Below, one piece after another: positions 5,529 to 24,106 of a stretch of DNA of 39,941 bases (the first letter of the stretch is position 1; the number at the start of each line of letters is the position of its first letter). The DNA comes from Bdellovibrionota bacterium FG-1 (GTDB lineage: Bacteria > Bdellovibrionota > UBA1018). A program made the translations under genes and the position numbers. The stretch spans positions 1 to 39,941 of the forward strand of contig JBBCAW010000140.1 in the NCBI GenBank assembly GCA_051382295.1. The letters run 5' to 3'. Under the pieces are notes generated by a model that had not been told where the DNA came from, ran no database searches, and was given only the letters and a program-made list of their open reading frames with translations.

Positions 5529-7469
5529 TCAAGTCGAGGGATGTTTAACCAAGAACAATTCTTTCGGAAACTGCTTCCCGATGACGCCACGAATATAGTC
5601 GGGCGTATAAATCTCGGTTTTTGCTTTTCCGGTGGTGATGTAGAGGTCCGAATACCCTTTGGCATGGAGCCTTGCCGCTACATCCACCCCGGATTCCCCG
5701 GCGCCGAGAATGCAATCGATGAATATCGGAGTATTAAACGAGACGCTCGACGCTTGTGTCTTCCATTCTTCGAACGAGGCCACAGCCATTAGGGTCAAGC
5801 CGTTCTCTCTTGCCTTTAGAGTCCAAAGACTTCGAATGGATGCATCGTCGTCGATAAGAACCAGGCACGGCGTGGGCCTGCCGTCGATCACGCGGGTCGC
5901 CCCACTGGAATTCGGCAGAACGACCAATTCGGCGGGGGGCGGCGGCACCACCTCAGGCAGCAAAATCTGAATGGAGGTACCTTTCCCAACCTTTGATTCA
6001 ATCGAGAAAGTTCCGCCCCAGGACTCAAACGCCGACTTGGCTCCAAAGAGTCTCAGGCCCACGCCATTAACCCTTCCGTGGGTCTCCCCAGGCCTGCCCA
6101 AGCGTGGCAAAATGTCGGCTGGGATTCCGCGTCCCGTATCCGAGATCACGAGCCTGACCTGCCTGGCCTGCTTTGACACATGAAGGATGATCAAGCCGGC
6201 TCCATCAATAGCGTCGGCGGCGTTGTCGATCAGGTTGGATAAACTACGCTGAAACGCCTGGGGGTCAGCACTCACCCAAGCCTGATCGGCTTCGCCGTCC
6301 CAACGGGCTTCGATTTTAAGGTTGCCGCGTTTCGCGTATGCCGAACGTTTCCCTGTCACAGCCCTGTCAATAGAACCTTTGATTGCGGTCGGAACCGGGG
6401 AGGTCCAAAGAGGATTGCCTTGAAGAAGGGTCGAAATCGCACCGGGTTTAATGGGCTGAAGAAGGCTTTCGGCGATGCCATGAACACAATCAATGGCGTC
6501 CCGCACCTGCAAGAAAATTTCTTTTGGCAGAGTTTGAGACATGTTTTCTTCAAAATCCCGGAGGACTGCGAGCGGTTTCCGAATATCATGCGCCATGTGG
6601 GCTGCGAGGCCCACGAAAAGATGCGCGAGGCGGCTTTCCTCAAGTACCTTTTGCTGTGTCAAAATCGTTTCGTGGAGCTGAACGAGGGATTGCCTCAATG
6701 TCTTGATTTCCCGAATCGACGTCGAGTCTTTCAATGACTTCACTCGTTCCAGGGTCGACTGAGCGGCAATGGGGTCCAGGGCGGATTGCTGAATAGCTCG
6801 GGTCATCGCCTCGATGGGGGCGGCCATTCTTCTTGAAAAAAAGGTGGCAGCCATTCCCGATGCAATGGCCAAAAAGGCAAATAACCAAACTCCGATCCAG
6901 AGGGCTGACGCCCTGGACGCTCGAAGAATTTGATCTTTCGGAAGTACGACAAAAAGCGTCCCAATTTGCTTGGCAGTGGAGTGTTCCACCAAAGGAAACT
7001 GAAATAGGCTCAGCCGTTCCCCCGTGCCAATGTTCTTGTTTTTCGAAAGGACAAGAGATGACTTCGCAACAAAGTCCATCGCCCCATCCCCGTGTGCCCG
7101 CCGTTCCGCCCAAGTTGGCTCTCCGGCGTAACAACACGACACTTCTACCGCAAGGCCAGTCGCATCACTGCGTCCAATGATTTTTCCGCCGGGATCTGTG
7201 ACGTAAGCGTAAGAAATGGGGAGGGTCTCCACCAATCGCGCAAGTTCGTCCTCAACATAAACAAGATTGTTTCGCCCGACGGAGATCGAGATAGCGTCCT
7301 TTGATACCAACTCGGCAACTGATCGAGTCACGCGCTCGGCTGCTTGAAGGTCCCGCCCACTCTGAATCCAATACGCAAAATAGCTCAATACCCCTGCGAG
7401 AGGGATCGCGGCGACTAGCAGCCAGAGCATCAGATGCGTTCGAAATCCGTGGTCGCGACCTACCTTCAT
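5529..7469 (-). CDS. Membrane-bound hybrid sensor histidine kinase with C-terminal receiver domain
   Basis: Two TM segments flank a periplasmic domain. H-box AHDIRKPL, N-box NLIDNA, G1 DTGRGI, G2 GVGLRL, receiver LIDDD...FID...TTG...GK. Confidence 0.93.
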   Translation of the reverse strand: MKVGRDHGFRTHLMLWLLVAAIPLAGVLSYFAYWIQSGRDLQAAERVTRSVAELVSKDAISISVGRNNLVYVEDELARLVETLPISYAYVTDPGGKIIGRSDATGLAVEVSCCYAGEPTWAERRAHGDGAMDFVAKSSLVLSKNKNIGTGERLSLFQFPLVEHSTAKQIGTLFVVLPKDQILRASRASALWIGVWLFAFLAIASGMAATFFSRRMAAPIEAMTRAIQQSALDPIAAQSTLERVKSLKDSTSIREIKTLRQSLVQLHETILTQQKVLEESRLAHLFVGLAAHMAHDIRKPLAVLRDFEENMSQTLPKEIFLQVRDAIDCVHGIAESLLQPIKPGAISTLLQGNPLWTSPVPTAIKGSIDRAVTGKRSAYAKRGNLKIEARWDGEADQAWVSADPQAFQRSLSNLIDNAADAIDGAGLIILHVSKQARQVRLVISDTGRGIPADILPRLGRPGETHGRVNGVGLRLFGAKSAFESWGGTFSIESKVGKGTSIQILLPEVVPPPPAELVVLPNSSGATRVIDGRPTPCLVLIDDDASIRSLWTLKARENGLTLMAVASFEEWKTQASSVSFNTPIFIDCILGAGESGVDVAARLHAKGYSDLYITTGKAKTEIYTPDYIRGVIGKQFPKELFLVKHPST

Positions 7470-8437
7470 TTCTCGGTCCCTTCGATCCCCTCGATTTTAT
7501 AGATGAGGGGCACGTAGTCATGGACTTCAGGATTTGCGCCGTCACTGGCCTTCACGGCCACTGACTCCCGCCTAACCAAAAGAAAGGGCCCTCCGCATTG
7601 GACTGGAAATCCAGCGTCTCCCCGAGCAGCAAGCAAAAGATAGCGGCCCTCTTTGATGTCCTCAGAGGAGACGTTAACCGCCCTACCAGAAAGGGATAAA
7701 AAGCGAACTGGCGCCGTCATTTTGTGACCCCGCGATACCAGGAACCTGTTCACCGAAATGCTATAAACCTTTGGACATTCGTATTTTTCGTAAGAAAAAG
7801 TCGGAAGAGGCGTCATTCGAATAGGCGGGGATTGGGCAGCCAATCCCGAAATGACGGCTTGATCCTTATCCCACAAAATTGAATTGGGAAGTCTTCCGAC
7901 GACGAGTGCCTTAACATACCAAGCCCAAAATGCGGCCTTCTTGGCATAAATTTCGGCGATAGGGTGATCACCTGGCTCAGTCGGATAGACCACTTGTTGA
8001 CCACCGCGTTGTTTGATTAATGGTTTACCATTTTCATGAAAAGCGAGAAGTGCGCGATGATTCCGAATCAATTCGGCCGGAATCATCGAAACATAGTCAT
8101 CAACGCCAATCGCACAAACCCAACCTGCACGGGGTAAGTTATGAGCCCTAAGCAGATGCTTCAATTCAATCCCCTCGTATTGAAACACCTGATGCTCCGG
8201 GTTGAGTTGGCGATGAGGAGGTGTTGACTTGAGAGCGACCCATTTTTTGCTAAGATTTGCGACGTCCAGGTGCTCGACAAATATTTTGCCCGACTTGATT
8301 CCAACCACAATGACTGGCTCTGGCACCACCGACGGCTGCGGCACAGAGCTTCCATTGCTCGCAAGGGCATATTCCCCGGCCTGGGCCCAGGCCGACAACG
8401 CGCCAATGAGTAATAGAGCCAATCCGCGTTTTTTCAT
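7466..8437 (-). CDS. Periplasmic protein with molybdopterin-dependent oxidoreductase-like domain(s)
   Basis: Signal peptide ending AQA. YEGIELKHLL...AIGVDDYVSMIP...LLAFHENGKPL...RGG...VVYP...WAWYVKAL, with a degenerate second copy ending GGPFLLV. Overlaps both neighbours by 4 nt. Confidence 0.7.
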   Translation of the reverse strand: MKKRGLALLLIGALSAWAQAGEYALASNGSSVPQPSVVPEPVIVVGIKSGKIFVEHLDVANLSKKWVALKSTPPHRQLNPEHQVFQYEGIELKHLLRAHNLPRAGWVCAIGVDDYVSMIPAELIRNHRALLAFHENGKPLIKQRGGQQVVYPTEPGDHPIAEIYAKKAAFWAWYVKALVVGRLPNSILWDKDQAVISGLAAQSPPIRMTPLPTFSYEKYECPKVYSISVNRFLVSRGHKMTAPVRFLSLSGRAVNVSSEDIKEGRYLLLAARGDAGFPVQCGGPFLLVRRESVAVKASDGANPEVHDYVPLIYKIEGIEGTEK

Positions 8438-9240
8438 GTGTTTTCCTTAACGCCCCCTTTGCCGCCTAATTGAATAATCATGCCAGGCTCAAGGCTGAAC
8501 CAGCGGGGGTCTTTTCGATTTAACGCTCGGATTCGGCGGTGAACCGCTGACACCTCATTGCGGGCGTGATGAGTGACTCCGATCATTTGGATGGCAGTCG
8601 TTGGTGCCCATTCTTCAAGCCGTTTCAAATCCGCATGAACAGGAATATCGGTTTTTACTGTATAGATTTCCTGCAAAAGAAAGCCGACGTCTGAAACCAA
8701 AGCGCAGGTCGCATCCGTAATTTGCCCGTCACCGCTCACCGCAAAGGATCGGATACCCTTCCCGGTAAAGTCGACCCTCAGAGTATAATTCAAAACAGAG
8801 TGCGTTGTTTTCGCTGCCGTGACCCGAAGTGACTCCAACTGAACCCCAGCGGTATCGGAAATTTCGACAAACTCAAGCGGGAAGGATAGCCGAGCCAAGA
8901 GCCCGGGATACCCCAACTCGATCAGTTTTCGAATGTGCCGCTCACCACCCCGGCCGGCAACAATTTGGAGGGGCTTCTCGCGCCGCTCTTCCCAGTAACG
9001 ACAGATCAGCGGAACAATACCAAAAACGTGGTCAGCATGGAGGTGGGTCAGGCAGATCGTATCAATCTCTTTGTGGAGATCCAACCGCCAAAGGCGCTCT
9101 GGGATCTGATACCCGCAGTCAAAGAGTAGAGTTGGAATCCCTTTTCCATGCAAAAGGTAGGAGGCATTTCCGAGGCCCGAACTAAGGGCTTCCCCTGTGC
9201 CGATAACACAAATCTCAGGTCTGGCGGGCTTTGGTTTCAC
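8434..9240 (-). CDS. MBL-fold metallo-hydrolase (RNase Z/phosphodiesterase-like)
   Basis: IGTG, LFDCG, THLHADH, TTH, SGD, VH and THH motifs. GTG at 9240 follows GGAGG; the ORF track extends to 9390. Confidence 0.9.
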   Translation of the reverse strand: MKPKPARPEICVIGTGEALSSGLGNASYLLHGKGIPTLLFDCGYQIPERLWRLDLHKEIDTICLTHLHADHVFGIVPLICRYWEERREKPLQIVAGRGGERHIRKLIELGYPGLLARLSFPLEFVEISDTAGVQLESLRVTAAKTTHSVLNYTLRVDFTGKGIRSFAVSGDGQITDATCALVSDVGFLLQEIYTVKTDIPVHADLKRLEEWAPTTAIQMIGVTHHARNEVSAVHRRIRALNRKDPRWFSLEPGMIIQLGGKGGVKENT

Positions 9241-9460
9241 GGATGACCTCCAAAAGTTTTTCGGAAAGTTTTGCCAATTGAGAAATAGCGGCTTCGATTT
9301 TCTGACTTCCGGCCGTTTGAAGCTGAAGAAGGTCGGGTGTTGCAGGCTTACCCTCCCAGAGGGTCTCAAATGACCCTTGCATACAAGCAAGGCCCGAGCG
9401 CATTTCGTGCCTGATGCTACTCACTTGATTTTCGATCTCGGTAAGACTGATTGCCTTCAT
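9215..9460 (-). CDS. Stand-alone HisKA/DHp-like microprotein (81 aa)
   Basis: SSIRHEMRSGLACMQG resembles an H-box and is followed by a second amphipathic helix. SD GAGGGG. Fills the gap between the activator and the MBL gene. Confidence 0.62.
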   Translation of the reverse strand: MKAISLTEIENQVSSIRHEMRSGLACMQGSFETLWEGKPATPDLLQLQTAGSQKIEAAISQLAKLSEKLLEVIRETKARQT

Positions 9461-9471
9461 CGGATTTCCCC

Positions 9472-11040
9472 TCATTCAGCTGACTCCGTGCTTGGCTGGG
9501 ATGCCTTTCGAAGTTGTCTCTGTGACATTCCCAGTTCCTTTAACCTCATGCTCACAAATCCCTCAGAAACTTCCAGTGCTTTTGCGATCTCGGAATTCTT
9601 AGAAAACTTCTTCCGAGCATCCAACACCACTCGGCGGGCAATTGCCTCAACAAACTTTGAAAACCCCTGGAACTCCGCGTGACCAACTACGTCGAGTGGG
9701 CGACTCATAATCTCAGGGAGCGTTAAAGAGTTCTCAAGGCCCTGTATTTCTCGAAGCTGGACCTTCTGGGTCTTCAGCATCTTCTTCCATTGTGAAAGGA
9801 TCGGTACATCATTCTTGTCGCGATCACTCATGAGTAATAACTGTACCAGTTGATTCTCGATTCCGCGAAGATTTCCATCCGGAATATTGTCCATGAGATA
9901 TTGAATGAATCCATTCGGGATGTCATCAAAATGAACGTAAATACCGGCTAAGTCGCAGCACTTTGGCAAAACCGATCTCACAATTTCCGGAATATCCTCT
10001 CTTCGCTCCGTAAGGGACGGCACATGAATCGTGATGACTGATATTCGATAAAATAGATCCTCTCTGAATTTTTTTTCTCGTATGAGTTGTTGGAGATCTT
10101 TGTTTGTCGCGCAGATGAGGCGAAAATGACTGCGCCTGATTTGGGAACTTCCCACCCGGCGGAACTCCTTCTTATCTAATACTGTCAGCAATTTTGCCTG
10201 AAGATCCAAGGATGCGTCGCCAATTTCATCAAGAAATAAAGTCCCTCCATCTGCCGCCTCGACCAATCCAATCTTGCTATCCACCGCACCGGTGAATGCA
10301 CCTCTGTCATGTCCAAAAAGCTCACGCTCGGCGAGATTCTCCGGAACCGCCGACATATTGAGCTGTACGAAGGAGCCATTTTGTTTCAGATGTTGTTGCC
10401 GGAGGTTGTGACCAATGAGGGCCGCCACCGACTTACCTGTTCCGGACTCTCCGAGCATTAAGGCTGCGGCGTCTGACTTCGATATCACATCCACCTGCCT
10501 GCGTAGTCCCTGGATGGCTTCAGAGCTTCCTGGAAAATCCAAGCCCTTGCTTTCTTGCTGGCCGCGCTGGACGGCTAAACGGGTCGACATCAATACGAGA
10601 CTAGAATATCGAACGGCGTTTTTGAGCTGTTCAAGCAATAAATCTTTTCCATCTCCTTTAAGGACGTACCCGAATGCCCCGTTACGCATGGCTTGAACAA
10701 TATTTTGGCGGTTGTCATTTCCGGTAAGCATGAGAATTTGCGCATTCGGGCGGATCAACAAAAGCTCCGGAATGCTCGCGATACCGTCATGACGAGGATC
10801 TTCTTTGTCCTTCCCGAGGTCTTTGTCCAATACGATGACATGGACATCAGTTTTTAGGAGAACTTGAATCGCCTCAGCGATTCCACTGCACTCCATGAAA
10901 TGAAACCCCTGAGCCTGAATCGCATCCAGGCAGCGTGTCCTAAAGAGCAGTCTGTCCGCCTCCTGGTCATCCACCAAGAGGATTACCGGTCCAAGGACCT
11001 TGTCACAAGGTTGTTGATCGAATGCGGAATTCAAGTCCAT
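9472..11040 (-). CDS. Sigma-54-dependent NtrC-family response regulator (REC-AAA+-Fis HTH)
   Basis: LVDDQ...VLDKDL receiver, [40 protein letters not shown]-terminal HTH. ATG 11040 follows GAGG. Confidence 0.96.
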
Positions 11041-11292
11041 GGGCGCCACCTCATGACTCGTAGCGTAACTAATTTTATTTTACATAGCAATAGAATACTT
11101 TATGGCTAAAAATCTACGTTTTCGTAAAAGCCGATAAAAACACTCTTTTCTTCATGTGTGTGAAGAAATTTCTTTGCAGTTTTGAAATACGAAGTAAAAA
11201 AATCCCTTCTCGTTGACATGGCTGGTTTCAATAAATGTTATTTATGTAAACAAAACGTGACCATGCCGGTTTCTAGACCTCAAGTCCAATTT

Positions 11293-11309
11293 CCGGCACG
11301 AATCCTGAT
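11293..11309 (+). promoter_or_regulatory. Candidate sigma-54 (-24/-12) promoter for the transfer region
   Basis: CCGGCACGAATCCTGAT versus consensus TGGCACG-N4-TTGC, with GA at -12 instead of GC. Lies 56 bp before the 11365 ATG. Palindromes upstream at ~11115-11126, 11151-11164 and 11163-11174. Confidence 0.5.
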
Positions 11310-11364
11310 AAGGGCTTCCCACAATCGATGGAACACGCCATCGAAAAAATGAAGGAGTCCGATC

Positions 11365-11709
11365 ATGCAATTAGATACTTTTAATAAAATCCTGGGAGTC
11401 AGAACCCCCGTGGAAGTCTTCAGATGCTGCCCTCGCTGCAAATGTCCCCGTCTGTTTGACTTTGAAGGAGAGGTCTTCTGTCAGCGATGTTCGTGGACCA
11501 GCATAGACATTCACGCGGAGGTCCTCGCGGATGTCCAGTTACGTCGGCAGCAAGAACGGGCTGACAGTGCGTCAAATAGTGACCCCTTCGGAGCGGTCCA
11601 CCTCACTGACGGTCGAGCAACCACCCCTCACCGTAAGCGACTGTCTTCGCCGAGACGCCCTATCCAATCTAACCCAAGTATCAGGGTATCCCACCTCGAT
11701 ATCGCTTAA
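11365..11709 (+). CDS. Small zinc-ribbon protein
   Basis: CPRC-x12-CQRC; SD AAGGAG. Confidence 0.75.
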   Translation: MQLDTFNKILGVRTPVEVFRCCPRCKCPRLFDFEGEVFCQRCSWTSIDIHAEVLADVQLRRQQERADSASNSDPFGAVHLTDGRATTPHRKRLSSPRRPIQSNPSIRVSHLDIA

Positions 11710-11735
11710 ACAGGCCACAAAACGGAGAACGAACC

Positions 11736-11987
11736 ATGAACGAAGTACAAATGATCAGCGGTAAGGTTATTTCAATTAAACCCATTAAATGGCTCCAGTT
11801 GAAAGTAGCGTGTTCAATCATCGTAGCCGCCGCAAGGAGTAGTTTTAAAGCGATTGGCACTCAGCTCAGGGTGCTTGGAGTGAAATGGCGAGAAGAGGCA
11901 TTAAGGGGGGCCGAGATTGAGCGAGCCCTGGCGCGCGAAAAAGTGAGACTCCACGAACGATTCCCCTTTCGTGGGTATGGTCATTAA
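11736..11987 (+). CDS. Hypothetical protein (ICE leading region)
   Basis: SD GGAGA, collinear with neighbours. Confidence 0.65.
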   Translation: MNEVQMISGKVISIKPIKWLQLKVACSIIVAAARSSFKAIGTQLRVLGVKWREEALRGAEIERALAREKVRLHERFPFRGYGH

Positions 11988-12016
11988 ACACGGGAATAAC
12001 ACGAGGAGGGACTGAC

Positions 12017-12178
12017 TTGCTGAATAACGAATGGAAGGCGATCAAGGAACGGTTTTACAGACTCATCGGGAGCCTAAGCGTCGAAGAGATTATGTCTAAC
12101 CCGCCCCTGATCGAGAAGATCAAAACGGTATCAGGCCTACTCCTCGCATTGACGAGTGGCCAGAAAGGAAGAGCGTAA
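12017..12178 (+). CDS. 53-aa hypothetical protein (MLNNEWKAIKERFYRLIG...)
   Basis: Translated by hand. SD GAGGAGG before TTG; stop lies 2 nt before the next ATG. Confidence 0.6.
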   Translation: MLNNEWKAIKERFYRLIGSLSVEEIMSNPPLIEKIKTVSGLLLALTSGQKGRA

Positions 12179-12180
12179 TC

Positions 12181-12369
12181 ATGTTGGATGACCAAGCGCC
12201 ATTTTTGATTTTAATGTGCCTTTGCGTAGCGACTTATTTTGGAATGAGCCTGGCAGGTGTCAAAGAGCGACGTTCTCAACGTAAGGCATCAGAGGGTGAT
12301 GAGATGAGACTTTGTTTTACCAAACTAAAAAGGAGCAAGGAGGTTACCGATGTCGATTCACAAGCTTGA
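12181..12369 (+). CDS. Small single-TM hypothetical protein
   Basis: Hydrophobic N-terminus, tightly packed in the operon. Confidence 0.5.
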   Translation: MLDDQAPFLILMCLCVATYFGMSLAGVKERRSQRKASEGDEMRLCFTKLKRSKEVTDVDSQA

Positions 12370-12550
12370 ACGCGAGTTTTCAGACCTTTGCACGAAAATA
12401 TCGTTCAGGGAATTGGAACTAAATCCCGAAATAGAGCGTGAGTTGGGCGTGATCAAGCGAATGATCATGAAAGCAAAGTCCCGATTAAGAGATGCCGAAA
12501 AAAGGTCGGCGGCTCGGGTTGCCAAGCGGGCCCAGAGTGTCTTTGGTTAG
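12350..12550 (+). CDS. Small coiled-coil hypothetical protein
   Basis: SD AAGGAGGT, helical charged sequence. Confidence 0.7.
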   Translation: MSIHKLEREFSDLCTKISFRELELNPEIERELGVIKRMIMKAKSRLRDAEKRSAARVAKRAQSVFG

Positions 12551-12633
12551 TCCTGATACATTAAAAGAGGGTGATTTATGAGTTCCTGTGAGCCGTTTGT
12601 GCTCCGTCTTTGCGATGAAAATGGAGTTATTTT

Positions 12634-12984
12634 ATGGATTTCTCGAATCGAACCTATCATGAGGTTCTGCGTGGAGCGCGCGCGGGCCTTCCCGATGGGA
12701 ATTGTAAGCAATACATGGCGGGCTATGCACTCCGATTTGAAGGGGTGGGCTACTACGTACTTAAGCTTTGGTTTCAGCAGGAACGAAGTTATTTCATTCA
12801 AAAAAATCAGGAAGATGACGACACTTATTGCGTCTACAGTCGAAAGGTACTGGAAGGTGATGGCCAAGTCCGTTTCCTGAATCCGGTGGGTTACGCAAAA
12901 ATGACCCAAAACCAAGAGTCGCTTGAAATCGTGCTGCCCGATCTCCCTCGCCGCTACTACATGAGCTTGTTCGCCAAGCCCTAG
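12634..12984 (+). CDS. Hypothetical protein with a duplicated aromatic beta module (AGYA...YVLKL / VGYA...LEIVL), possibly ssDNA-binding
   Basis: SD GGAG. Internal two-fold similarity is loosely reminiscent of DUF736. Confidence 0.6.
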   Translation: MDFSNRTYHEVLRGARAGLPDGNCKQYMAGYALRFEGVGYYVLKLWFQQERSYFIQKNQEDDDTYCVYSRKVLEGDGQVRFLNPVGYAKMTQNQESLEIVLPDLPRRYYMSLFAKP

Positions 12985-13076
12985 CCAATCCAACAGAAGT
13001 TTCCCCGCCTTATGATGCGGCCCTGAGCTACTGTCCCAAATTTCTTGGGCGCCAACCTCTTTTTGGGAGGCGTTAG

Positions 13077-13358
13077 ATGAATCGAAATTGTTGGCTCTTA
13101 CTCGGAGTCGTGGCCGGAATTGGCCTTGCGATACCCACGATGGGTTACTGCTCCGTTGAGTCCTCACTTGAAAATGTTCAATCGAAGCTTGAAGTCCTGC
13201 TCCCGGTGCTTGCCACCTTGGGCCTTGGGTTTGCTGGCGTGTCGTTTCTCCTGGGTAGCCCCAATGCTCGCGGACACCTGATTCTGGCGATCATTGGTGC
13301 CGTCGTGGGATTTGGTGCCACGAGCATCATGGGCTTCATTCGACAAATCGTCCGCTGA
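13077..13358 (+). CDS. TrbC/VirB2-family pilin
   Basis: Leader plus two hydrophobic helices ending IIGAVVGFGATSI. First T4SS gene; SD GGAGG. Confidence 0.85.
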   Translation: MNRNCWLLLGVVAGIGLAIPTMGYCSVESSLENVQSKLEVLLPVLATLGLGFAGVSFLLGSPNARGHLILAIIGAVVGFGATSIMGFIRQIVR

Positions 13359-13442
13359 ACTGAAATGGAAGGGGCGGTCCAGTGCCAACCATTAGGGCGG
13401 CCGGGGCCGCCACCCTTTCTTGAACTTTATAGGAGGTCTCTT

Positions 13443-13781
13443 ATGTTCGACCCAGTCAGTTTACGATCAACGGCGGTCAGTCGTTGCCTTGAGAAAAAAC
13501 TTTTATTTTTTGGATTCGAGCTACCCGACGTTCTCATCATTTTTATTTTCCTATCGGCGCTCAATCTCGCGTTTGGCCGGACCCATTATCGCGTGGTGTT
13601 GGTGTGGGTCCCGGCGCTTGCGCTTGCCGGGGCGCTACGGGGCGCCAAACGAGGAAAACCCGATGATTTTCTGATTCATTGGGCGCGTTTTCATATCGGT
13701 CCACGGGCTCTCTACGCATTTTATCAACCGACCGTTCGTATCAATACGCGCGGAAAACTGATCTTGGAGGTTAAATTATGA
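13443..13781 (+). CDS. VirB3/TraL-like membrane protein
   Basis: LFFGFELPD, two TMs, KRGKPDDFLIH. SD AGGAGG; ATGA overlap with virB4. Confidence 0.75.
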   Translation: MFDPVSLRSTAVSRCLEKKLLFFGFELPDVLIIFIFLSALNLAFGRTHYRVVLVWVPALALAGALRGAKRGKPDDFLIHWARFHIGPRALYAFYQPTVRINTRGKLILEVKL

Positions 13782-16195
13782 CTGCCACTCTTGCTGATTA
13801 TCTTGAAGTCTGGGGTTTTGAAGCAGATTTTTCTCTTTTTTCTGATTCGTCGTTAGGATTTGGTCTGGAACTGCACCCACTAGACGTAAGCTGCTGGCAC
13901 AATGAGCGGATCAACGGACTCTCTGAACGGTTAGCGCAATTCCTAAACGCCCTGCCGGCAGGGGTCGATTGTCAGTTTGTGCAGGAGATCCGCGCAGGAA
14001 ACGCTGAGTTGATCGAGGCCCACAAGAAGCTTGCTGAGGGTTCCGGTAGTGCAGCTGGCATGGCTATTTGTGAGGGGCGCATCGAAAAGATTCGGCGCCT
14101 GGATTCTGAGGGCCGCGTGCCCTACCACGGCCTCAAACTTTATGTCCGACGCCCCGCCGATAATGCACTTCTTTCCAAACCCACATTCCTATCGGCCCCC
14201 AAAAAATTTCAGGTCCAAGCGCAGACGAGATTGGAGCGGGATCTAGAAGCAGCACGAAGACTGAGAGAAACCATCGAGCAGGGGTTGCGCGCCTTGGGTA
14301 TCCAAACCCGACCACTCACACCGGACGAAATCTATCATGAACTTTACCGGTCTTGGAATCCTACTCGCGCCATTGATGCCCCCCAATACGACCCGGAGGA
14401 CGTGCGCTCGTCCGTGATGTTGAGTGACGTTGAGATTTCGGAGGTCGGGTTTTCGATCGCGGGCTCCCATCACCGGGTGATTTCGCTCAAAATGCTTCCT
14501 GATCAGACTTTTGGGGCGATGGCCGCCGCTCTACGAGAGCTACCGTTTGATTCGCGCCTTCATCTTTCCATTCATCTCCCCAATCAAACAAAGGAGATCG
14601 AGTCGCTTCAGATGCAGCGGCGGCTTGCTTATTCAATGGCGCGCAGGAAAAAGTCAGGAGTTTCGGATCTCGATAGTGAGGCCAAGTTTCAGGATCTCGA
14701 AACTCTCCTTGAGCAAATGATCGCCACTGGCGAAAAGGTGTTTCACGTTTCGACCAATGTCATCTTGCGATCCACTTCGATCCGGGAGTTGGAGGATCAG
14801 GTGGCCGAGACGCTTCGGGTGCTGCGGGACCTGGGGGGTGCCGAGGGGCTGGTTGAATCCATCGCGGCATTTCCGATCTTTTCGGCCCTCAGCATCCCCA
14901 ATGCTCGCGCTAAAGAACGAGCCAAGCGGGTCAAGACCTCAAACCTGTGTGATCTACTCCCGGTCTATGGGCCATGGCGGGGGTATTCGAAACCGTCGAT
15001 TTTGTTGCGCACTCGGCAAGGGAGCCTTTTTTCGTTTGACCCCTTTGCCCCGGAGCTTGCCAGTAGTAATCAACTGGTCAGCGGTGGGGCTGGGTCCGGC
15101 AAAAGCTTTTTGACGAATATTCTGCTGCTTCAAATCCTCAATGAAAATCCTAAAATCTATTTCGTTGATATCGGGGGCTCCTACAAGAAGCTGTGTGAAA
15201 ATCTAAAAGGTCAGTACCTTCCGCTTGGCGTCGGCGCGGGGCTTGCCTTCAATCCATTCGATTTGGCCGAAGGAGAATCCCATCCTTCCCCCCAGAAGAT
15301 CAAATTCTTGGTGGGTTTGATCGAACTCATGACCAAGGATGACGAATTAGCCAGGCTCCCGAAGCTGGAACGAGCCGAGATCGAGGACGCCATTGCACGC
15401 CTCTATAAGACGAACGCCAACCCCAGACTCTCGCACCTACGCGCAGCGCTTCTCGAACATACTGAGCCTGAAATCCGGAAATATGGACGAATTCTCGGTC
15501 CTTGGTGCGGTGAAACACCGTTCGGTCAGTTCGTTGATCGCGACACGAATATCGCACTCCATCGGCCAATCGTAGCCTTTGATTTGAAGGGCATGGAGTC
15601 CTACCCCGACCTGCAAGCGGTCTGCCTCTACATCATTACCGATTTTGTATGGCGCGAAATTCAAAAAGATCGCAGCCAAATGAAATTTCTGGTTTTCGAT
15701 GAGTGCTGGAAGCTTCTGAAGAATGACGCCGGGCTGGCATTTATCGAGGAGGTGTTCAGAACGTTCCGAAAGTACAATGCTTCGGCCATTGCCATCTCTC
15801 AGGATATTGACGACTTCGCCAAATCCAAGATCGCAGGAGCAATCCTGCCTAATTGCGCCATCAAGTGGGTATTGATGCAGCAGAGCAGCGACCCGATCCG
15901 AATTAAGGATGCATTGGACTTGAATGAAAACGAAATGGGACTTATCAAATCCTTGAAACAAGACCGGGGCTTGTACTCAGAGGCATTCTTGATTGCCCAA
16001 AAAGAACGCATCGTTGCCGTCATTGAGTCCACGCCGCTTGAATACTGGATTGCAACGACTGATCCCAAGGATCTGGGAAAAATTGAGGACGAAAGTAGAA
16101 ATGAACCCGACACGGACCCCGTGGAAATCCTCAAACGACTGGCAGAAAAGTATCCGCGCGGTGTGGCCACCTCGAACCAGGCGGAGACCAGATGA
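13778..16195 (+). CDS. virB4: VirB4/TraC-family conjugative ATPase
   Basis: GGAGSGKS Walker A, VDIGGSY, FNPF, FLVFDECW Walker B, RTFRKYN, ISQDIDD. Confidence 0.96.
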   Translation: MTATLADYLEVWGFEADFSLFSDSSLGFGLELHPLDVSCWHNERINGLSERLAQFLNALPAGVDCQFVQEIRAGNAELIEAHKKLAEGSGSAAGMAICEGRIEKIRRLDSEGRVPYHGLKLYVRRPADNALLSKPTFLSAPKKFQVQAQTRLERDLEAARRLRETIEQGLRALGIQTRPLTPDEIYHELYRSWNPTRAIDAPQYDPEDVRSSVMLSDVEISEVGFSIAGSHHRVISLKMLPDQTFGAMAAALRELPFDSRLHLSIHLPNQTKEIESLQMQRRLAYSMARRKKSGVSDLDSEAKFQDLETLLEQMIATGEKVFHVSTNVILRSTSIRELEDQVAETLRVLRDLGGAEGLVESIAAFPIFSALSIPNARAKERAKRVKTSNLCDLLPVYGPWRGYSKPSILLRTRQGSLFSFDPFAPELASSNQLVSGGAGSGKSFLTNILLLQILNENPKIYFVDIGGSYKKLCENLKGQYLPLGVGAGLAFNPFDLAEGESHPSPQKIKFLVGLIELMTKDDELARLPKLERAEIEDAIARLYKTNANPRLSHLRAALLEHTEPEIRKYGRILGPWCGETPFGQFVDRDTNIALHRPIVAFDLKGMESYPDLQAVCLYIITDFVWREIQKDRSQMKFLVFDECWKLLKNDAGLAFIEEVFRTFRKYNASAIAISQDIDDFAKSKIAGAILPNCAIKWVLMQQSSDPIRIKDALDLNENEMGLIKSLKQDRGLYSEAFLIAQKERIVAVIESTPLEYWIATTDPKDLGKIEDESRNEPDTDPVEILKRLAEKYPRGVATSNQAETR

Positions 16196-16884
16196 AACGG
16201 CCCCTCGTTGCCCTTCTGATGACGGTCAGTATCATTCTATACCCCAGCGAACTGGCGCAAGCCGATTTGTTTGGCGGGGACGTGGCGGTTTTGGTGAATA
16301 TCCTGGCAAATGCCCTTCAACAGCTTTCACAGCTGCGAGCCATTGTGGGAACAGGAAATGATACGCTCGGAGTTTTAAGAGAGGTGAATCGCGGCATTAA
16401 CGACTCGCTTCAGCTCTATAAGACTATTAACCCAAACGCGGACCCCGGCATGTTTCGAGAATGGTCAAATGCCCCTGCGGCCTTTCACGGAGTGACGGAT
16501 CTCTATGGCACAGTCGTCCCATCCAAGGACTCCCGCATTCAGACGAGTACGGACCAGAGTGTGGCCGAGGCCGTTGCGCTCAATAACTCAATTTACACCT
16601 ATACGCGGGATGTCGATGACATCGGTGAGCAAATCAAGAGCTACAGCCACACCGTTTCACCCGGTGGTGCCCAGAAACTCACGGCGGAAAGCATGGGGGT
16701 CATGCTTCATGTCATGAATACGAGCCTTCGCGCCCAGGCGACCAGCCTAAAGATCCAAGCTGAGGTGCTTGCTTTGCAGAATCACAAAGACAAAGAGGCT
16801 AGTCGAGAGACGACCGAAGCCAGTGAGTCGCTTAAGGCCGCAGTTCAAGGTGAATCCCCAAAATTTGAGATGCCGCGCTTCTAA
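16192..16884 (+). CDS. VirB5/TrbJ-like exported T4SS protein
   Basis: Signal peptide, DVAVLVNILANALQQL helix, position after virB4. Confidence 0.65.
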   Translation: MKRPLVALLMTVSIILYPSELAQADLFGGDVAVLVNILANALQQLSQLRAIVGTGNDTLGVLREVNRGINDSLQLYKTINPNADPGMFREWSNAPAAFHGVTDLYGTVVPSKDSRIQTSTDQSVAEAVALNNSIYTYTRDVDDIGEQIKSYSHTVSPGGAQKLTAESMGVMLHVMNTSLRAQATSLKIQAEVLALQNHKDKEASRETTEASESLKAAVQGESPKFEMPRF

Positions 16885-16917
16885 ACCGAAGCCCAATTTT
16901 TAGGAACCGAGGAATTC

Positions 16918-18066
16918 ATGCACGATCTTTCGTGGCTATCATCCGAAGCCAAGCAGATCCATGCGCTGTTTGAACAAGTATTCTACGGCCTCACGCTCGT
17001 ACTCCTCCTCATCGGGGTGGTAACTGAGTTCTTCAAAATGCCGCTAGGGGGAATGCCTCAGTTCTCGCAGCTGGTGGGGCGTCTCTTGATAGCAACCCTG
17101 CTGCTCGTAACCTATTCCGAGGTCAGCAACACAATTGCAGATTTTGGGGACGCGGTATCCAATCAAATCGGATCACTCAACAGCATCAAGCTCGTATTGT
17201 CCCGTTACTACGACAAACTTTTCCAGTTTCAGATGTCTTGGACCTCAATCAAAGACTCCATTTTAATGTTGATTTCGTTTGTAACGTTTTTTCTGCTCTA
17301 TATTTCGGTCTACATCGCGGACGCGGCCATCACCTATGCATGGGTATTGCTTTATGTATTTTCACCACTTCTGATCGCGCTCTTCATCTTGCCGGTGACC
17401 AGTGGCGCAACCAAAGCGCTCTACCGGACCCTTTTTGAGGTGATCGCTTGGAAAATCGTCTGGTCAGTTTTGGCGACCTTGCTTTGGAGTTCAGCTCTTT
17501 CGCAAATCAATCAGCCACAGAGCAAAATCAACTTTATCACGGCGGTATCCCTCAATCTGATCTTGGCAGGCTCCCTTTTGCTGACGCCACTTGTGGTTAA
17601 CGCACTGGCCGGCTCGGGACTGGCGAGCCTGGCTGCCCAAACCGCAGGCATCGCCGCCGGGGCTGCTGCGTTCAACCCTGGTCAACTGATGGCTCAGATG
17701 AGCAAAAGACCGCCGAATCGTGGGCCTGGCGGTTCCCCTCTGGGTGGTGGCGGCCCTTCACCGGCAACTCAGTTTGGATCGGGGTTTCAAGAAAAGTATG
17801 GCGAACGAAGAAATGCGCCACCCCAGGCGAGGCCGACTCCAACGCCGATGTCCAAGTCGGTTCCTAAGTCCGTTCCTAAGTCCGTTCCTAAATCAGTGGC
17901 CCCGGTAAATCAGGAGAAACAACGGGCGGCGTCCGTGACATTTAAGGCCGCGACGGCAAAATACACCCCTCCTGCCAACCGTTCTCAGTACAAAAAACAG
18001 CCCGTTCAACGGGAGTTATTCAACGAGTCCCGGAAGCCTGATGGCTCAAAGTCTAAAGGAGATTGA
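16918..18066 (+). CDS. VirB6/TrbL-like polytopic membrane protein
   Basis: Five to six TMs, SPLLIALFILP motif, low-complexity cytoplasmic tail. Confidence 0.8.
   Translation: MHDLSWLSSEAKQIHALFEQVFYGLTLVLLLIGVVTEFFKMPLGGMPQFSQLVGRLLIATLLLVTYSEVSNTIADFGDAVSNQIGSLNSIKLVLSRYYDKLFQFQMSWTSIKDSILMLISFVTFFLLYISVYIADAAITYAWVLLYVFSPLLIALFILPVTSGATKALYRTLFEVIAWKIVWSVLATLLWSSALSQINQPQSKINFITAVSLNLILAGSLLLTPLVVNALAGSGLASLAAQTAGIAAGAAAFNPGQLMAQMSKRPPNRGPGGSPLGGGGPSPATQFGSGFQEKYGERRNAPPQARPTPTPMSKSVPKSVPKSVPKSVAPVNQEKQRAASVTFKAATAKYTPPANRSQYKKQPVQRELFNESRKPDGSKSKGD
17854..17901 (+). repeat. 12-bp tandem repeat encoding (KSVP)3-KSVA
   Basis: AAGTCGGTTCCT AAGTCCGTTCCT AAGTCCGTTCCT AAATCAGTGGCC. Confidence 0.9.
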
Positions 18067-18071
18067 TATTT

Positions 18072-18629
18072 ATGCGTTTTACCGTGGCTTGGGCTCATGT
18101 CATTTCTGAAAATCTGGCGTTGAAGATTGCTCTGGGTTGTCTTTCGCTGGTTCTCGTTGGCCTCTCTATCACTGTGGTTTCACTTTCCACACGAAAACCG
18201 CTCTTAATTGAACGGGCTTGTTTCTCGCGTGCGATTGCCATCGCTAGCGGTGAACGGTCCCCTTCCGAAATCGAAGTTTTTGTGCGGGAAGCGGTTGCCA
18301 TGCGCTTTGATTCGATGGCCCAGGTTAAACCTGGCTTCCTGTCGGCGGACGAAGAAAGGTACCGTGGCCAGGAGCAATTGGACCTCAAAAAGCATGACCT
18401 TTCAGAGCGCATATTGGTCAACGCGGTGGAGATTCATGGCGAAAAGATCACGGTGGATTCTGATCGCCTGTTTAGCGTGGGGGCCGTGCGCTCGGCGCTT
18501 CCATTCCCGTTGACCCTAACCCTTGGGTCTGTCGGCCGCAGCGAAGGAAATCCTTACGGGCTCATTCTTCTCCAATCGGCGGCCCAAGTGCCGCCGCCGA
18601 ATCAACCTCAGGGAGGTGGTGGCAAATGA
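18072..18629 (+). CDS. VirB8/TraE-like bitopic protein
   Basis: N-terminal TM; C-terminal RSEGNPYGL is the VirB8-type NPxG motif. Confidence 0.75.
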   Translation: MRFTVAWAHVISENLALKIALGCLSLVLVGLSITVVSLSTRKPLLIERACFSRAIAIASGERSPSEIEVFVREAVAMRFDSMAQVKPGFLSADEERYRGQEQLDLKKHDLSERILVNAVEIHGEKITVDSDRLFSVGAVRSALPFPLTLTLGSVGRSEGNPYGLILLQSAAQVPPPNQPQGGGGK

Positions 18630-19078
18630 GATCCCCTCAAGACGTGGATTTGAATTTTTGGGCTATGTTTGTGTTCACCGCAGCATTAGTTGCGTTTCTC
18701 GCCGGAAGGGTTCAGGCTCGCGTCGCCTCTCAAAGTCAGCCGGCCGCTGTTGATGATCATTGTGTGGTGCGGCTGGATAATCGAAGTGTGGCCTATGTCG
18801 CGATTGCATCGGACGGGACCGTGCTCGAATTTCCGACCAAACCCACGAAGGTGATTTTGGGTCGTAAAGCGTCTTTCGGAATCGAGTACGTCGAATCAGA
18901 CTTGGCGATCTCGCCGTTTTCGTTATCATCGCGGTCTCACCTTTTCGTCTATCTGGAGGGGCGACGATTCACGTTTGACCTTTCGACCATCGCAAGTGGC
19001 GGCTGCTCTGTCATTGCCGTGCGCGATTCAAAAGACAATCAAGTTTCCGTGGACGGATTTTTCCGTCCCAAGAACTGA
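18626..19078 (+). CDS. Short VirB9/TraK-like periplasmic protein
   Basis: GTVLEFP...VILG...LAISP...SHLFVY...RFTFDL pattern, located between virB8 and virB10. Confidence 0.65.
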   Translation: MRSPQDVDLNFWAMFVFTAALVAFLAGRVQARVASQSQPAAVDDHCVVRLDNRSVAYVAIASDGTVLEFPTKPTKVILGRKASFGIEYVESDLAISPFSLSSRSHLFVYLEGRRFTFDLSTIASGGCSVIAVRDSKDNQVSVDGFFRPKN

Positions 19079-19096
19079 GTTCCAAGGGGTTTCACC

Positions 19097-19993
19097 ATGA
19101 ATGTTGATCCAGTCGTTGAGATCACGACCGAACCTGGGTTAAATCGGCAGTTTGGGAGACATTGGCGTTCTTACCAGAACTCCCCCTATGGAATATCCAA
19201 CTCATTGGCGATGGCTTCTGGTGTGGCGTTGGTGGTCACCGTCAGCGTCATCGTTTTCACTGGAAATCCCAAGAAAAGTCAGTCTGATCAAACCAGTAAA
19301 TTTCTTGGGATCGAAGTCCCTCGCGGACAGTCCCAAGCAGAAATGCTTATCATCCCACGGTTTGACCCCATGACTTTTCCGAGCCCCACGGCCAAAGCAA
19401 ACGCTGGCCCACGATCAGCAGTGCGTCTTTTCGGGCCTCAGGTCGTCAGTCGTCCAAGAAATGTACAGATTCCTCCTGGATCAATGGTGGAGGCTATTTT
19501 GATTTCAGGTGCGTCCGACGGACCAGTCAAGGCCGAACTCAAAGGGCCATTGATTGTTGGAGGTGAAACACTGCTTGAGGTCGGCACTGTACTCATGGGC
19601 ACCGGCCAGTCCGGCGACGATCGGCTCATGATCCATTTTCGGAAGGCGATCTTTCGAGACGGTACGATGGCAAAGATTGAGGCGCAGGCCGCAGATCACT
19701 CTGACAAAATTCCGGGAATCAGGGGTTCACATGTTGGATACCGGGCACTCAAACTCGCCGCCGGGGTGGGGCTCAGCTTTGCGGGCGGTTTGTCGCAAGG
19801 GCTTCAAGATACGCAGGGTCAAGCGGGCGCTGTGGTCGCACCGCCGTCGATGAAGAACGCACTCTTAAATGGTGCCGCCCACGCGACCCTAGAAGAGGGC
19901 CAAGAGATGATGAACGACTACAGGAACGAGAAGCCCGTTATAACTGTGGAAGCCGGGACACTCGTGACCGTGCTTTTTGTCGATAACGGCTGA
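19097..19993 (+). CDS. VirB10/TrbI-family protein
   Basis: TM and Pro-rich linker, IPPGSMVEAIL, GTVLMG, GIRG, PVITVEAGTLVTVLF. Confidence 0.9.
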   Translation: MNVDPVVEITTEPGLNRQFGRHWRSYQNSPYGISNSLAMASGVALVVTVSVIVFTGNPKKSQSDQTSKFLGIEVPRGQSQAEMLIIPRFDPMTFPSPTAKANAGPRSAVRLFGPQVVSRPRNVQIPPGSMVEAILISGASDGPVKAELKGPLIVGGETLLEVGTVLMGTGQSGDDRLMIHFRKAIFRDGTMAKIEAQAADHSDKIPGIRGSHVGYRALKLAAGVGLSFAGGLSQGLQDTQGQAGAVVAPPSMKNALLNGAAHATLEEGQEMMNDYRNEKPVITVEAGTLVTVLFVDNG

Positions 19994-20058: not shown

Positions 20059-21621
20059 ATGGGTGATACTTCTGCGGTCCATAAAGAAGAGTGGGATTTA
20101 TCCGGCCTGGTCCGTTTGGGCATTTTCATCAAAGAATTTGGAATCGAATTTTGGAGGGGGGTTACGACAAAAACGCTGCCTTGGCCCATTTGTTGCGGCA
20201 TCGGTGTCGTTTTCTCGACAATCTTCACTCTTCGATATGACGCCTATGCATGGCGGTTTATCGGTATGGCCAAAGGTTACCCTTTTCATCCCTTATTGTA
20301 TTGGACCTATGTAACGATCTACGTCAGCAGCGGCTTCTGGATTTGGACGATAGGCCGAGTGTTCTCTCGTCGCGAACTGGTGAAAACGCTTTCCAGCGCT
20401 TTTCATAATGCGGGCCTCCTGACACGCACAGGACGGTTCCCCGGTTTTGTCTCCGACGAAAAACTCGATACCCACATGCGAAAGCTCGTGGTAACAGCCG
20501 TGGGGCTCCCAGAATCCGAGTTCAAAAAGGCCAGGCCCAGCTTAGAAGCTGCTTTACAAGTCTTTATCGATCAGATCAAGTCGCGGGTCGAGCGAGGAAC
20601 TGTCGAGCTGCTCTATGCCTACATGCCGCTTCTCGATCATATTGATTATGACCCTCTCATGAAAGTCGCCCCGTTGACATTCATGGTGGGAATGACACGA
20701 TCCAAGCCACTGCTCATCTCTTTACGAGAGGTGCCCCATATTCTGGCCGGTGGCTACACGAATTCAGGAAAGTCAGCATTTGTACGCCAATTGCTCATGA
20801 CGCTCACGTTAAATAATCCCGACGTCGAATTCACCCTCATTGATCTAAAGAGTGGGCTTGAACTGGGGATCTTTGACGGTATGCCAAACGTCAGACTCTA
20901 CATCACGCCCGCCGAGGCAATTAAAGCACTTCAGTACGTAGAGGCGCAGCTTGAAAAACGGATGGGGCTATTAAGAGCCAATCGGGCGAATGACTTTGAT
21001 GCTTTCTATCGAATCCCCGAGGAGAAACGGAAATATACGGCCGAGTGGCCTAAGGGGAAAGTCCTTGTCCGTCACGTCCTGACTATCGACGAAGCAGCTG
21101 AGCTTTTTATGGCCAGCGGAACCCTTGCAGCAAAGGATGCTCAAGTTGCGCGCCGTCTCACCGCAAAGATCGCAGCCCTAGGGCGTGCCGTTGGCATTCA
21201 TCTCATTATCGCGACCCAACGTCCTGATCGCAATGCCGTGGACCCGCTCATTAAGAGCAATCTCCAAGGACGACTCTGTTTTCAAATGTCGGACAATGCT
21301 TCGAGCATGACGATTCTGGATTCGGTTCGGGCCGCTGATCCTCCACCCACAAAAGGTCGGGCTATTTGGCGATCAGGTTTTGATCTCATCGAAGTCCAAG
21401 TACCTTGGCTCGATCGCGACGCGATGGCACTGCTTCTTGAACCCTTTAAGAAAAAGGGTGAGGCAGTTGGGTCAACTGCCAACGGGACAGACCAAAGCCA
21501 CACTCAAGTGAGTGCAGCATCCAAAATTGACGATGGCGTTGAAAAATCGACCGGCATTGTGACGACCCATAAAAAATTGGAAGTAGCATTGCTTTCTGAA
21601 GAAAACGGAGGCACTGAATGA
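20059..21621 (+). CDS. FtsK/SpoIIIE-family DNA translocase (TcpA-like coupling protein)
   Basis: N-terminal TMs, PHILAGGYTNSGKS, IDLKSGLE, IDEAAEL, GRAVGIHLIIATQRP. Confidence 0.93.
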   Translation: MGDTSAVHKEEWDLSGLVRLGIFIKEFGIEFWRGVTTKTLPWPICCGIGVVFSTIFTLRYDAYAWRFIGMAKGYPFHPLLYWTYVTIYVSSGFWIWTIGRVFSRRELVKTLSSAFHNAGLLTRTGRFPGFVSDEKLDTHMRKLVVTAVGLPESEFKKARPSLEAALQVFIDQIKSRVERGTVELLYAYMPLLDHIDYDPLMKVAPLTFMVGMTRSKPLLISLREVPHILAGGYTNSGKSAFVRQLLMTLTLNNPDVEFTLIDLKSGLELGIFDGMPNVRLYITPAEAIKALQYVEAQLEKRMGLLRANRANDFDAFYRIPEEKRKYTAEWPKGKVLVRHVLTIDEAAELFMASGTLAAKDAQVARRLTAKIAALGRAVGIHLIIATQRPDRNAVDPLIKSNLQGRLCFQMSDNASSMTILDSVRAADPPPTKGRAIWRSGFDLIEVQVPWLDRDAMALLLEPFKKKGEAVGSTANGTDQSHTQVSAASKIDDGVEKSTGIVTTHKKLEVALLSEENGGTE

Positions 21622-23836: not shown

Positions 23837-24106
23837 TTACCGGCGACTCGCCCGTTTAGGTTCCCGCTTCATCTCTAGCCGGGTTTCTTGAGCGAGGCGA
23901 ATCACATCTTCCGGGTTAAGTTTGCGCTTTTTGACAACTTTACGGCCCTCAGCTCTAACCAGTGCCAAGTCGCGGCTAGTCATGTACTGGCGAAACGCTT
24001 CGCGGAGCACTTCGGAAACAGTCCTGCGCTCGTTTTTGGCGATCTTTAAAACTTCCTTTTCCATGTCAGGCGGCAGGGACAGTGAAATGACTTTAGCTGT
24101 TCTCAT
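23837..24106 (-). CDS. CopG/RHH antitoxin
   Basis: VISLSLPP...AKNERRTVSEVLREAFRQY. ATG 24106 follows GGAGAG. Confidence 0.9.
   Translation of the reverse strand: MRTAKVISLSLPPDMEKEVLKIAKNERRTVSEVLREAFRQYMTSRDLALVRAEGRKVVKKRKLNPEDVIRLAQETRLEMKREPKRASRR

Follow-up and report, generated by a model that had tools for sequence, protein, structure and literature searches.

The 39,941-nucleotide stretch considered here (the window) is one entire contig, C140, of the 4.4-Mb genome of Bdellovibrionota bacterium FG-1, a host in which rpoN is present. The window carries an integrative element that is likely conjugative, since an integrase, an excisionase-like gene, a VirB4 mating machine and an FtsK-type ATPase are all found in it. 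Five minus-strand genes in tight coupling, running from an activator through a small open reading frame (ORF), a metallo-β-lactamase (MBL) fold protein and a periplasmic binder to a kinase, are separated by about 320 bp from a divergent plus-strand run of transfer genes. Comparison with related elements suggests that this cassette is a regulatory unit that would drive the transfer genes directly, with a signal passing from binder to kinase to activator to a sigma-54 promoter, a reading to which we give a probability of about 0.62. A preliminary description, made from the window alone, had pointed to such a circuit.

The first gene of the operon (9472..11040, minus) encodes a sigma-54 enhancer-binding protein in which Pfam and motif reading find a receiver, a Sigma54_activat AAA domain, the GAFTGA loop and Walker A and B motifs, all present. 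The C-terminus gave no HTH_8 match at E 0.01; it reads as helix-turn-helix-like and aligns with NtrC-family models to residue ~510. Next come a small His-bearing helical protein, DHp-like and a candidate phosphotransfer or modulator protein (9215..9475, minus); an MBL-fold hydrolase of the RNase Z/Apyc1 phosphodiesterase type (8434..9240, minus; 268 residues, GTG start); a PruR-like periplasmic protein, predicted to bind pterins and bearing an extra C-terminal domain (7466..8437, minus; Pfam Oxidored_molyb, E 9.5e-7); and a hybrid sensor kinase (5529..7469, minus) with two membrane segments around a periplasmic domain, an H-box, HATPase and a C-terminal receiver-like domain. Three of the junctions are ATGA overlaps, and the MBL start falls within the 3' end of the small ORF. 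The overlapping gene ends and domain matches thus bear out the tightly coupled operon of the preliminary description, along with its NtrC-type activator with intact GAFTGA, its MBL-fold member and its hybrid kinase. The "DHp microprotein" of that account fares less well: the His-bearing helical ORF is there, but its HisKA match (E 1.8e-4, 21.9 bits) lies under the cut-off of 26.9, and Pfam gave no Hpt match for it.

Between the two divergent transcription units lies a sigma-54-like promoter, GG-N10-GA, at 11294..11309 on the plus strand, with a predicted start near 11320. It had been described as a -24/-12 element of the form GG-N10-GC; the element is present, but its -12 pair is GA. Candidate activator sites at 11147..11193 comprise an inverted repeat with 8-bp arms (11147-11168) and two related half-site pairs (11173-11193). 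They sit 127-173 bp before the predicted start, in keeping with the 120-180 bp first proposed, though the best palindrome was equalled in 26 of 300 shuffles and is not significant alone. The promoter itself has three mismatches to the consensus, and a consensus scan of the window had to be discarded as promoter evidence, being at chance level (181 such matches against 167.6 expected); support for the promoter is comparative. The site is nonetheless the sole match to its pattern between the activator gene and virB4. A sigma-70 reading of the TTGACA at 11213 was rejected for want of a matching -10 box, and no plus-strand promoter emerged from a sigma-70 scan of 10900-13500. Neither Rfam nor tRNA scans gave a match in the window. 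Downstream, the co-oriented transfer region of about 12 kb was correctly recognized, extending on the plus strand from 11365 to ~23860.

Relatives of the element are found across the phylum. VirB4 matches (E 1e-100) occur in 111 of 401 genomes, patchily and often two per genome, and VirB4 identity reaches 79% across families. Upstream DNA was sampled from all but four of the other-genome matches of at least 45% identity, from 8 matches at 35-38% and from 14 loci found in two collection scans. With the window and its sibling, contig C115, this made 76 loci, of which 15 were removed as duplicates or as having no upstream DNA. Co-occurrence was counted at the 43 loci with at least 10 kb upstream, the window excluded. 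In 37 of these the 10 kb upstream of VirB4 contain an activator, and in 40 a kinase is present within 11 kb; after thinning to below 70% VirB4 identity, the activator is found in 24 of 29. Two of the six loci lacking one within 10 kb have an activator at 13-15 kb and one has a fragment, and no activator was found in the 12-17 kb upstream at L013, L051 and L063. Twenty distant loci (33-36% VirB4 identity), picked for their long contigs, made up a second set, in which 19 were usable and 15 of these have an activator within 13 kb. The base rate in the host, which has about 25 activator genes, is 5.5% of random 10-kb windows. No activator was seen in the 8 kb of C115 before the contig ends, nor in the 5.7 kb upstream at L113 (genome G424, VirB4 38-40%), a locus left out of all counts.

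What these loci share is a layout rather than a gene set. The binder slot among the 43 is held by a family-5 solute-binding protein in 23 and by a LivK-type protein in 10. YcaO-like genes occur in 17, and the enzyme slot elsewhere holds radical SAM proteins, a desaturase with an EamA exporter, DUF4135, a methyltransferase, an FAD enzyme or a nitroreductase. The nearest backbone (79-80%) bears an unrelated, co-oriented cassette, and tblastn (E 1e-4) matched the MBL, binder and small ORF of the window to none of the other VirB4 loci in the first set. The preliminary description had asked whether the operon accompanies this VirB4 clade, and took its absence from related ICEs (integrative and conjugative elements) as evidence against the circuit. 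Taken literally, the exact gene set was indeed found on no other element, yet the activator and kinase layout recurs and relatives fill the same slots with other genes. Comparative support is strong for a circuit that would license transfer through element-borne sigma-54 control, coming from the co-occurrence, a promoter conserved in place and orientation, and palindrome covariation; the circuit of the window would then be one variant of a family-wide design and not a one-off.

Some of these upstream regions have features of their own. Those of L012, L027 and L068 include, inside the elements, a reverse transcriptase and an Avd-like gene resembling a diversity-generating retroelement. The leaders of L027, L028, L031, L032, L064, L065 and L067 have a conserved protein of 330-450 residues with no Pfam match alongside LivK-type cassettes. 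Four distant loci without an activator (L097, L101, L104 and L107) have in common a divergent gene of ~368 residues and leader genes resembling sigma-70 region 4, perhaps a second mode of control; helix-turn-helix leader genes of the latter kind are found in all four distant activator-less loci and also in several activator-bearing ones.

The promoter shows its conservation most clearly among the eight loci that have the leader subfamily of the window, all of which place the -24 box 126-154 nt before a zinc-ribbon gene (131 in the window). The expectation that GG-N10-GC would be conserved there is borne out for the -24 box in 8/8, but GC stands at -12 in only 2/8, the pairs being GA in three, GC in two, GT in two and TC in one; GA is also found at this place in L070, L062 and others. 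When intergenic DNA was searched with a promoter pattern, the transfer strand gave a match at 27 out of 47 loci with an activator, against 6 on the opposite strand and 2.4 expected. Among the distant loci the pattern matched in 12 of the 15 with an activator (opposite strand 0, 0.6 expected) and in none of the four without. The activator genes are divergent in 19 cases and co-oriented in 18, which means that the site is not just a promoter for the cassette itself. The host genome, for its part, shows an excess of canonical sigma-54 sites, with 32 at spacing 10 versus about 9 at other spacings.

The palindromes upstream of these promoters track the activator rather than VirB4. Dyad spectra computed over 230 bp upstream in 33 loci, those with a hand-picked promoter and a full activator, correlate with activator identity at r 0.51 and with VirB4 identity at r 0.25. 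In the thinned set (n = 19) the correlation with the activator is r 0.27 (p 0.0004), or r 0.26 (p 0.0006) given VirB4, against r 0.12 with VirB4, while activator and VirB4 identities are themselves uncorrelated (r 0.06, p 0.34). Three control regions gave no significant result in the same test. L010 and L057 have a common dyad despite oppositely pointing cassettes, the dyad of L049 is also present in L026 and L030 at 47% VirB4 identity, and pairs of the form TTY(R)-N5-7-YRAA, similar to those of the window, precede the promoters of related cassettes.

Several observations pull the other way. The promoter pattern finds no match in 20 of the 47 activator-bearing loci, some through ORF masking, and does match in 6 of 12 first-set loci without an activator in view, including C115 and L013 (with 8 and 17 kb in view, respectively). 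Both site lists were already known when the pattern was drawn up, which makes the distant set less than fully blind, and the Mantel test used promoter positions chosen by eye. The palindrome spectrum of the window resembles that of no relative, the similarity not exceeding 0.08 for any of the 9 closest activators. Non-independence through kinship, together with linkage, by which neighbors covary, provides a partial alternative to the covariation.

The window activator belongs to a clade of eight element-borne activators (99% SH-aLRT in a quick tree of 33). All eight are divergent, and the gene after each is either a small ORF whose H-box position holds a His or a fusion that begins with one; L053, outside the tree, also has a small His ORF. 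A similar small ORF lies 3' of the activator in 8 related divergent cassettes, and GAFTGA-like loops are kept by the activators of most related loci. The NCBIfam LuxO model scores 217.5 of 800 bits against the window activator, far under its cut-off. Seven related small ORFs tested against HisKA gave no match, and a leave-one-out profile of the small ORFs, whose seeds included two unrelated lipocalin-like proteins, recovers the window ORF at E 0.014 only. Receiver-tailed kinases also occur in cassettes without a small His ORF, which leaves the idea of a universal phosphorelay through this protein unsupported.

The periplasmic protein at 7466-8437 had been described as molybdopterin-oxidoreductase-like. 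An Oxidored_molyb domain and a signal-peptide-like N-terminus are there, but the protein matches PruR-type pterin binders and not catalytic oxidoreductases. It is a SUOX-like domain with a secretion signal (judged by eye) and lacks the Mo-binding Cys; four of its five PDB matches are PruR-family structures, the best being 7kos (E 8.5e-4). The reading as a catalytic molybdo-enzyme was rejected on account of these matches and of the missing Cys position. The pterin pocket of PruR is formed by Asn102, Tyr104 and Trp160, and replacement of Asn102 by Asp is reported for two PruR groups (PMC11194511 for the pocket, PMC13259868 for both, as far as the accessible text of each goes). In the window protein and its aligned relatives (six sequences) the Tyr and Trp are kept and Asp stands in place of Asn102, with a D-x-Y and a Trp invariant in 6/6. 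The gene is thus better read as that of a predicted PruR-like pterin binder than of an oxidoreductase. A single-sequence structure prediction reached a pLDDT of 36.

The binder and kinase genes occur as a pair in five genomes. In G197, G424, G045 and G021 the binder precedes a kinase with the same sensor domain as that of the window (34% identity over residues 9-500 in G424); as a homologue query, the kinase sensor region matched only itself. In G197 the MBL-binder-kinase triad recurs on a 2.5-kb contig beside a small gene, lying upstream, that is known from two related elements. Elsewhere, at L077 (8866-10304) and L078 (7536-8974), two short-chain dehydrogenase genes, candidate pteridine reductases, diverge from a PruR-like gene and a kinase. 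Set against a PruR-like role in transfer control are the pairs of G424, G045 and G021, which have no MBL, activator or transfer genes, and the finding of no VirB4 of the window's clade in G197. The Pro-Trp motif of PruR (69-70) is replaced in the binder by Pro-Pro or Pro-His, and the window kinase shows no WX7E motif after its first membrane segment. Since these two motifs are missing and an extra domain is present (the binder has 323 residues, and is not of single-domain size), the protein would seem to work like PruR yet to fall outside the PruR-DcpA/DTB class. If the circuit governs transfer, directly or by a leader relay, a pterin ligand is a tentative assignment with a little under an even chance of being right.

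The MBL is harder to place. Against NCBIfam it scores 69.5 of 293 bits for RNase Z and 32.5 of 50 for Apyc1, and misses all curated cut-offs; the metal-binding His motif is present. The preliminary description saw in it a signal-degrading hydrolase. Its relatives are of hydrolase type, but the protein has no signal peptide and occupies the slot that biosynthetic enzymes hold in relatives, and because of that position it might, by a weak inference, make or tailor the signal rather than destroy it. Ten of the 11 other MBL matches stand without the cassette, a point against the proposed circuit. Granting the same control of transfer, a self-made signal is a possibility on the doubtful side of even.

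From the observed gene anatomy, co-occurrence, site conservation and covariation we infer each binding, phosphotransfer and transcription step of the following chain. The PruR-like protein would bind a small pterin-type ligand in the periplasm, as its PDB matches and kept pocket residues suggest, and would contact the periplasmic domain of the kinase, as the gene pairs in five genomes and the action of PruR on DcpA suggest. Phosphate would then move to the activator receiver, the small His protein serving perhaps as relay or brake. The activator would bind the palindromes 127-173 bp upstream and drive sigma-54 polymerase at 11294-11309, a site that is conserved and whose use is predicted, so as to transcribe the zinc-ribbon gene, the leader genes and the transfer genes. 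The ligand would more probably be made or tailored by the cytoplasmic MBL phosphodiesterase than destroyed by it, though only weakly so. Binder, enzyme, kinase, activator and palindromes appear to be swapped together as one module while the transfer backbone is conserved, so that each element would have a signal of its own.

Other readings divide over what the promoter serves and where the ligand comes from. The activator may drive only a short leader unit, from zinc ribbon to pilin, with the zinc-ribbon or another leader protein acting as master activator of transfer and excision, as SetCD-type activators do in other ICEs (in the accessible text of PMC5812530). Three findings would suit this division: a terminator-like hairpin follows virB2 at 13396-13411, as a similar one does in C115; a search for intergenic sigma-54-like sites ahead of xis-int found none; and in 34 loci the first gene of the unit is a zinc ribbon. 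Against it, the genes from virB3 onward are densely packed with overlapping ends, the zinc ribbon has no known family, and many loci without a zinc-ribbon gene keep the promoter, which makes the arrangement improbable. It is still a little less probable that the cassette is accessory cargo regulating itself or host genes, while host activators or some other factor serve the transfer promoter. The co-occurrence (37/43 and 15/19 against a 5.5% base rate) tells against cargo, as do the lack of the site in 4/4 distant activator-less elements and palindromes that track the local activator even where the cassette points towards the transfer genes; in its favor are the 6/12 elements that keep the promoter with no activator in view, the binder-kinase pairs that exist off such elements and the ~25 activator genes of the host.

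With the same sigma-54 output, the ligand could instead come from outside, for example as pterins shed by prey or neighbors, with the MBL destroying the ligand or a second messenger, and the circuit would then sense its surroundings and not the density of element carriers. The closest solved relatives of the MBL, Apyc1 and RNase Z, are hydrolases, three of the five genomes with the binder-kinase pair have no MBL, and bacteria excrete pterins, those of foreign origin being perhaps read by certain PruR owners (the accessible text of PMC13259868). We consider an external ligand rather unlikely, given an MBL without a signal peptide in a slot that holds YcaO in 17/43 and radical SAM, desaturase, DUF4135, methyltransferase or FAD enzymes in others. 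Finally, the type IV system might secrete proteins and move no DNA, the element being a domesticated island. It gave no match to a curated relaxase family, to VirB11 or to VirD4, and its attachment sites were not found; but integrase, excisionase-like, FtsK-type ATPase and Replic_Relax-like genes are kept in order in siblings, and VirB4 matches that are patchy (111/401), often two per genome and 79% identical across families make domestication very improbable. Direct control of the transfer genes by the cassette remains the reading we prefer.

The genes under the proposed control begin with the zinc-ribbon leader gene (11365..11709, plus), which matched no family in Pfam or NCBIfam and whose Cys pattern is found at this position in 34 loci. 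Small leader genes follow (11736..12984, plus), among them a 116-residue gene conserved in 39 loci, and then a VirB2-like pilin (13077..13358, plus; Pfam TrbC, E 6.5e-5, under the cut-off). The type IV secretion genes proper (13365..19993, plus) include a VirB3-like gene, VirB4 (13778-16195), four genes without a family and VirB10 (19097-19993). Of these names, VirB4 and VirB10 were assigned by Pfam, and the labels VirB3, B5, B6, B8 and B9 by position only. An FtsK-type ATPase assigned by Pfam, which may be the coupling protein (20059..21621, plus), precedes a candidate relaxase, Replic_Relax-like (21618..22592, plus), with an atlas score of 0.96 to clusters that are 17-19% PF13814. Integrase, excisionase-like gene, ATPase and Replic_Relax-like gene stand in the same order in siblings. 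A conjugative role is weakened by the relaxase candidate, a weak assignment with no Pfam or NCBIfam match, and by the element ends, which were not found, no repeat longer than 13 bp being shared between the flanks searched.

An excisionase-like HTH_17 gene and a tyrosine integrase (24244..25621, plus) diverge from a CopG-type ribbon-helix-helix gene (23960..24106, minus), a candidate repressor that was not found in 7 sibling loci or contigs. The statement that the element has no CI-like repressor is accurate in that no CI or XRE family was matched among the 51 window proteins scanned, a toxin-antitoxin antidote excepted, but it overlooks this gene. No relative of VirB4 or of the binder was found in viral contigs, and the best VirB4 matches listed from plasmids are 22-29% identical.

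Outside the transfer region, a perfect 409-bp inverted repeat (128-536 and 2258-2666) surrounds a PHB-regulator gene and a 146-residue gene; both genes have copies of 92-93% identity on other contigs, and the arrangement may be an assembly artefact or a segment capable of inversion. Just 5' of a Cys-rich, secreted-looking gene of 316 residues at 2821, a 23-bp unit stands in three exact copies in tandem (2721-2790). On the other side, 27738-30555 holds a toxin-antitoxin pair, a helix-turn-helix replication-like gene with 15- and 22-bp repeats, and ParA, whose homologues elsewhere in the genome adjoin tRNA-Gln, tRNA-Cys and tmRNA. At 30904-30926 there is a 23-bp fragment matching the tRNA-Arg(ACG) gene from contig C83, and a 21-23-bp motif at 30753-30775 is also present after two tRNAs; the motifs of 30753-30926 are probably the far end of a larger island containing the element. 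A near-consensus sigma-54 site with one mismatch (33918-33933, minus) stands just 5' of a 267-residue gene at 33098-33901.

In the other zinc-ribbon subfamily the promoters take a different form, with near-perfect -24 and -12 boxes that are 19-20 or 7-9 bases apart, not 10. Among 23 such loci with a picked promoter, the spacing is 19-20 in 14, 7-9 in seven, 10 in one and 11 in one, and a strict scan found 17 sites at 19-20 on the transfer strand versus 1 on the opposite strand; the spacing peak of the host chromosome is 10. Off-spacing boxes were seen in the C115 leader, at L010, L013, L015, L020, L024, L036, L037, L039, L041, L057, L060, L071 and L073, at L006, L018, L019, L021, L022, L029 and L049, and on C24 near 2029. 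After the boxes, which are tied to this one subfamily, come an AT-rich tract and a conserved purine-rich start; in L041 and L092 the -24 box is present twice, in tandem. To our knowledge sigma-54 tolerates no change of spacing, and such promoters, if functional, would surprise specialists.

Carried to its limit, the comparison would suggest that one family of conjugative elements, found throughout the phylum in predatory bacteria, uses interchangeable chemical languages, whether modified peptides, lipids, amino-acid-like ligands or, in the window, a self-made pterin derivative. A chain of binder, kinase and activator would read them and fire deliberately weakened sigma-54 promoters, many with boxes at spacings (7-9 or 19-20 bases) regarded as unusable. 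In that full form the idea is unlikely; were it true, a pterin would for the first time be known as an autoinducer and sigma-54 as a gate to conjugation, and sigma-54 promoters would have gained a new mode of use. The models in which conjugation is known to be signal-controlled are few, each of one fixed chemistry, whereas here one backbone appears to take exchangeable cassettes, which, with their common sigma-54 output, would amount to a natural library of orphan ligand-receptor pairs. The system also offers a direct test of pterins as cell-to-cell signals, an open question in the accessible text of PMC13259868, and is relevant to gene flow in predatory bacteria, which have been put forward as living antibiotics. 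A literature search, thin on subscription journals and without supplements, returned no report of sigma-54-gated conjugation, of this element family or of such spacings, and none that joins a PruR-kinase pair, a LuxPQ-type chain and signal-gated transfer on a conjugative element.

The chain of part types proposed for the window is the same as in the LuxP-LuxQ-LuxU-LuxO quorum-sensing system of Vibrio, in which a periplasmic binder, a hybrid kinase, a small His protein and a sigma-54 activator act together. The window binder is of another, SUOX-like fold, however, its small protein is DHp-like and not HPt, and its circuit sits on an element, with a transfer operon as the predicted target in place of small RNAs.

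Signal-gated ICE transfer and PruR-kinase pairs are each already known, from what is accessible of PMC5812530 and PMC13259868. In the Agrobacterium PruR-DcpA and PruR-DTB systems, as presented in the available portions of PMC11194511 and PMC13259868, a Cys-less periplasmic SUOX-fold protein is likewise encoded just before a two-membrane-segment sensor, and the pocket Tyr and Trp kept in the window binder are a further likeness; kinase output is given for 23% of PruR pairs (PMC13259868). The window binder differs in having 323 residues and a second domain, against ~150 residues, and in lacking Pro-Trp; its kinase has no WX7E and no detected likeness to DcpA. The adjacent enzyme is an MBL where PruR systems have a pteridine reductase, and a sigma-54 activator, carried by a mobile element, is the predicted output. 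Among ICEs, signal control is described for RapI/PhrI-ImmR of ICEBs1, TraR/QseM of ICEMlSymR7A and SetR/SetCD of SXT (PMC5812530). The likeness to the window lies in an element-encoded signal circuit that decides the timing of excision and transfer; in the accessible description in PMC5812530, none of these controls involves sigma-54 or a membrane kinase, and rpoN is mentioned there in the title of one reference only. The family to which the window belongs differs from all three in that it appears to swap its sensing chemistry from element to element.

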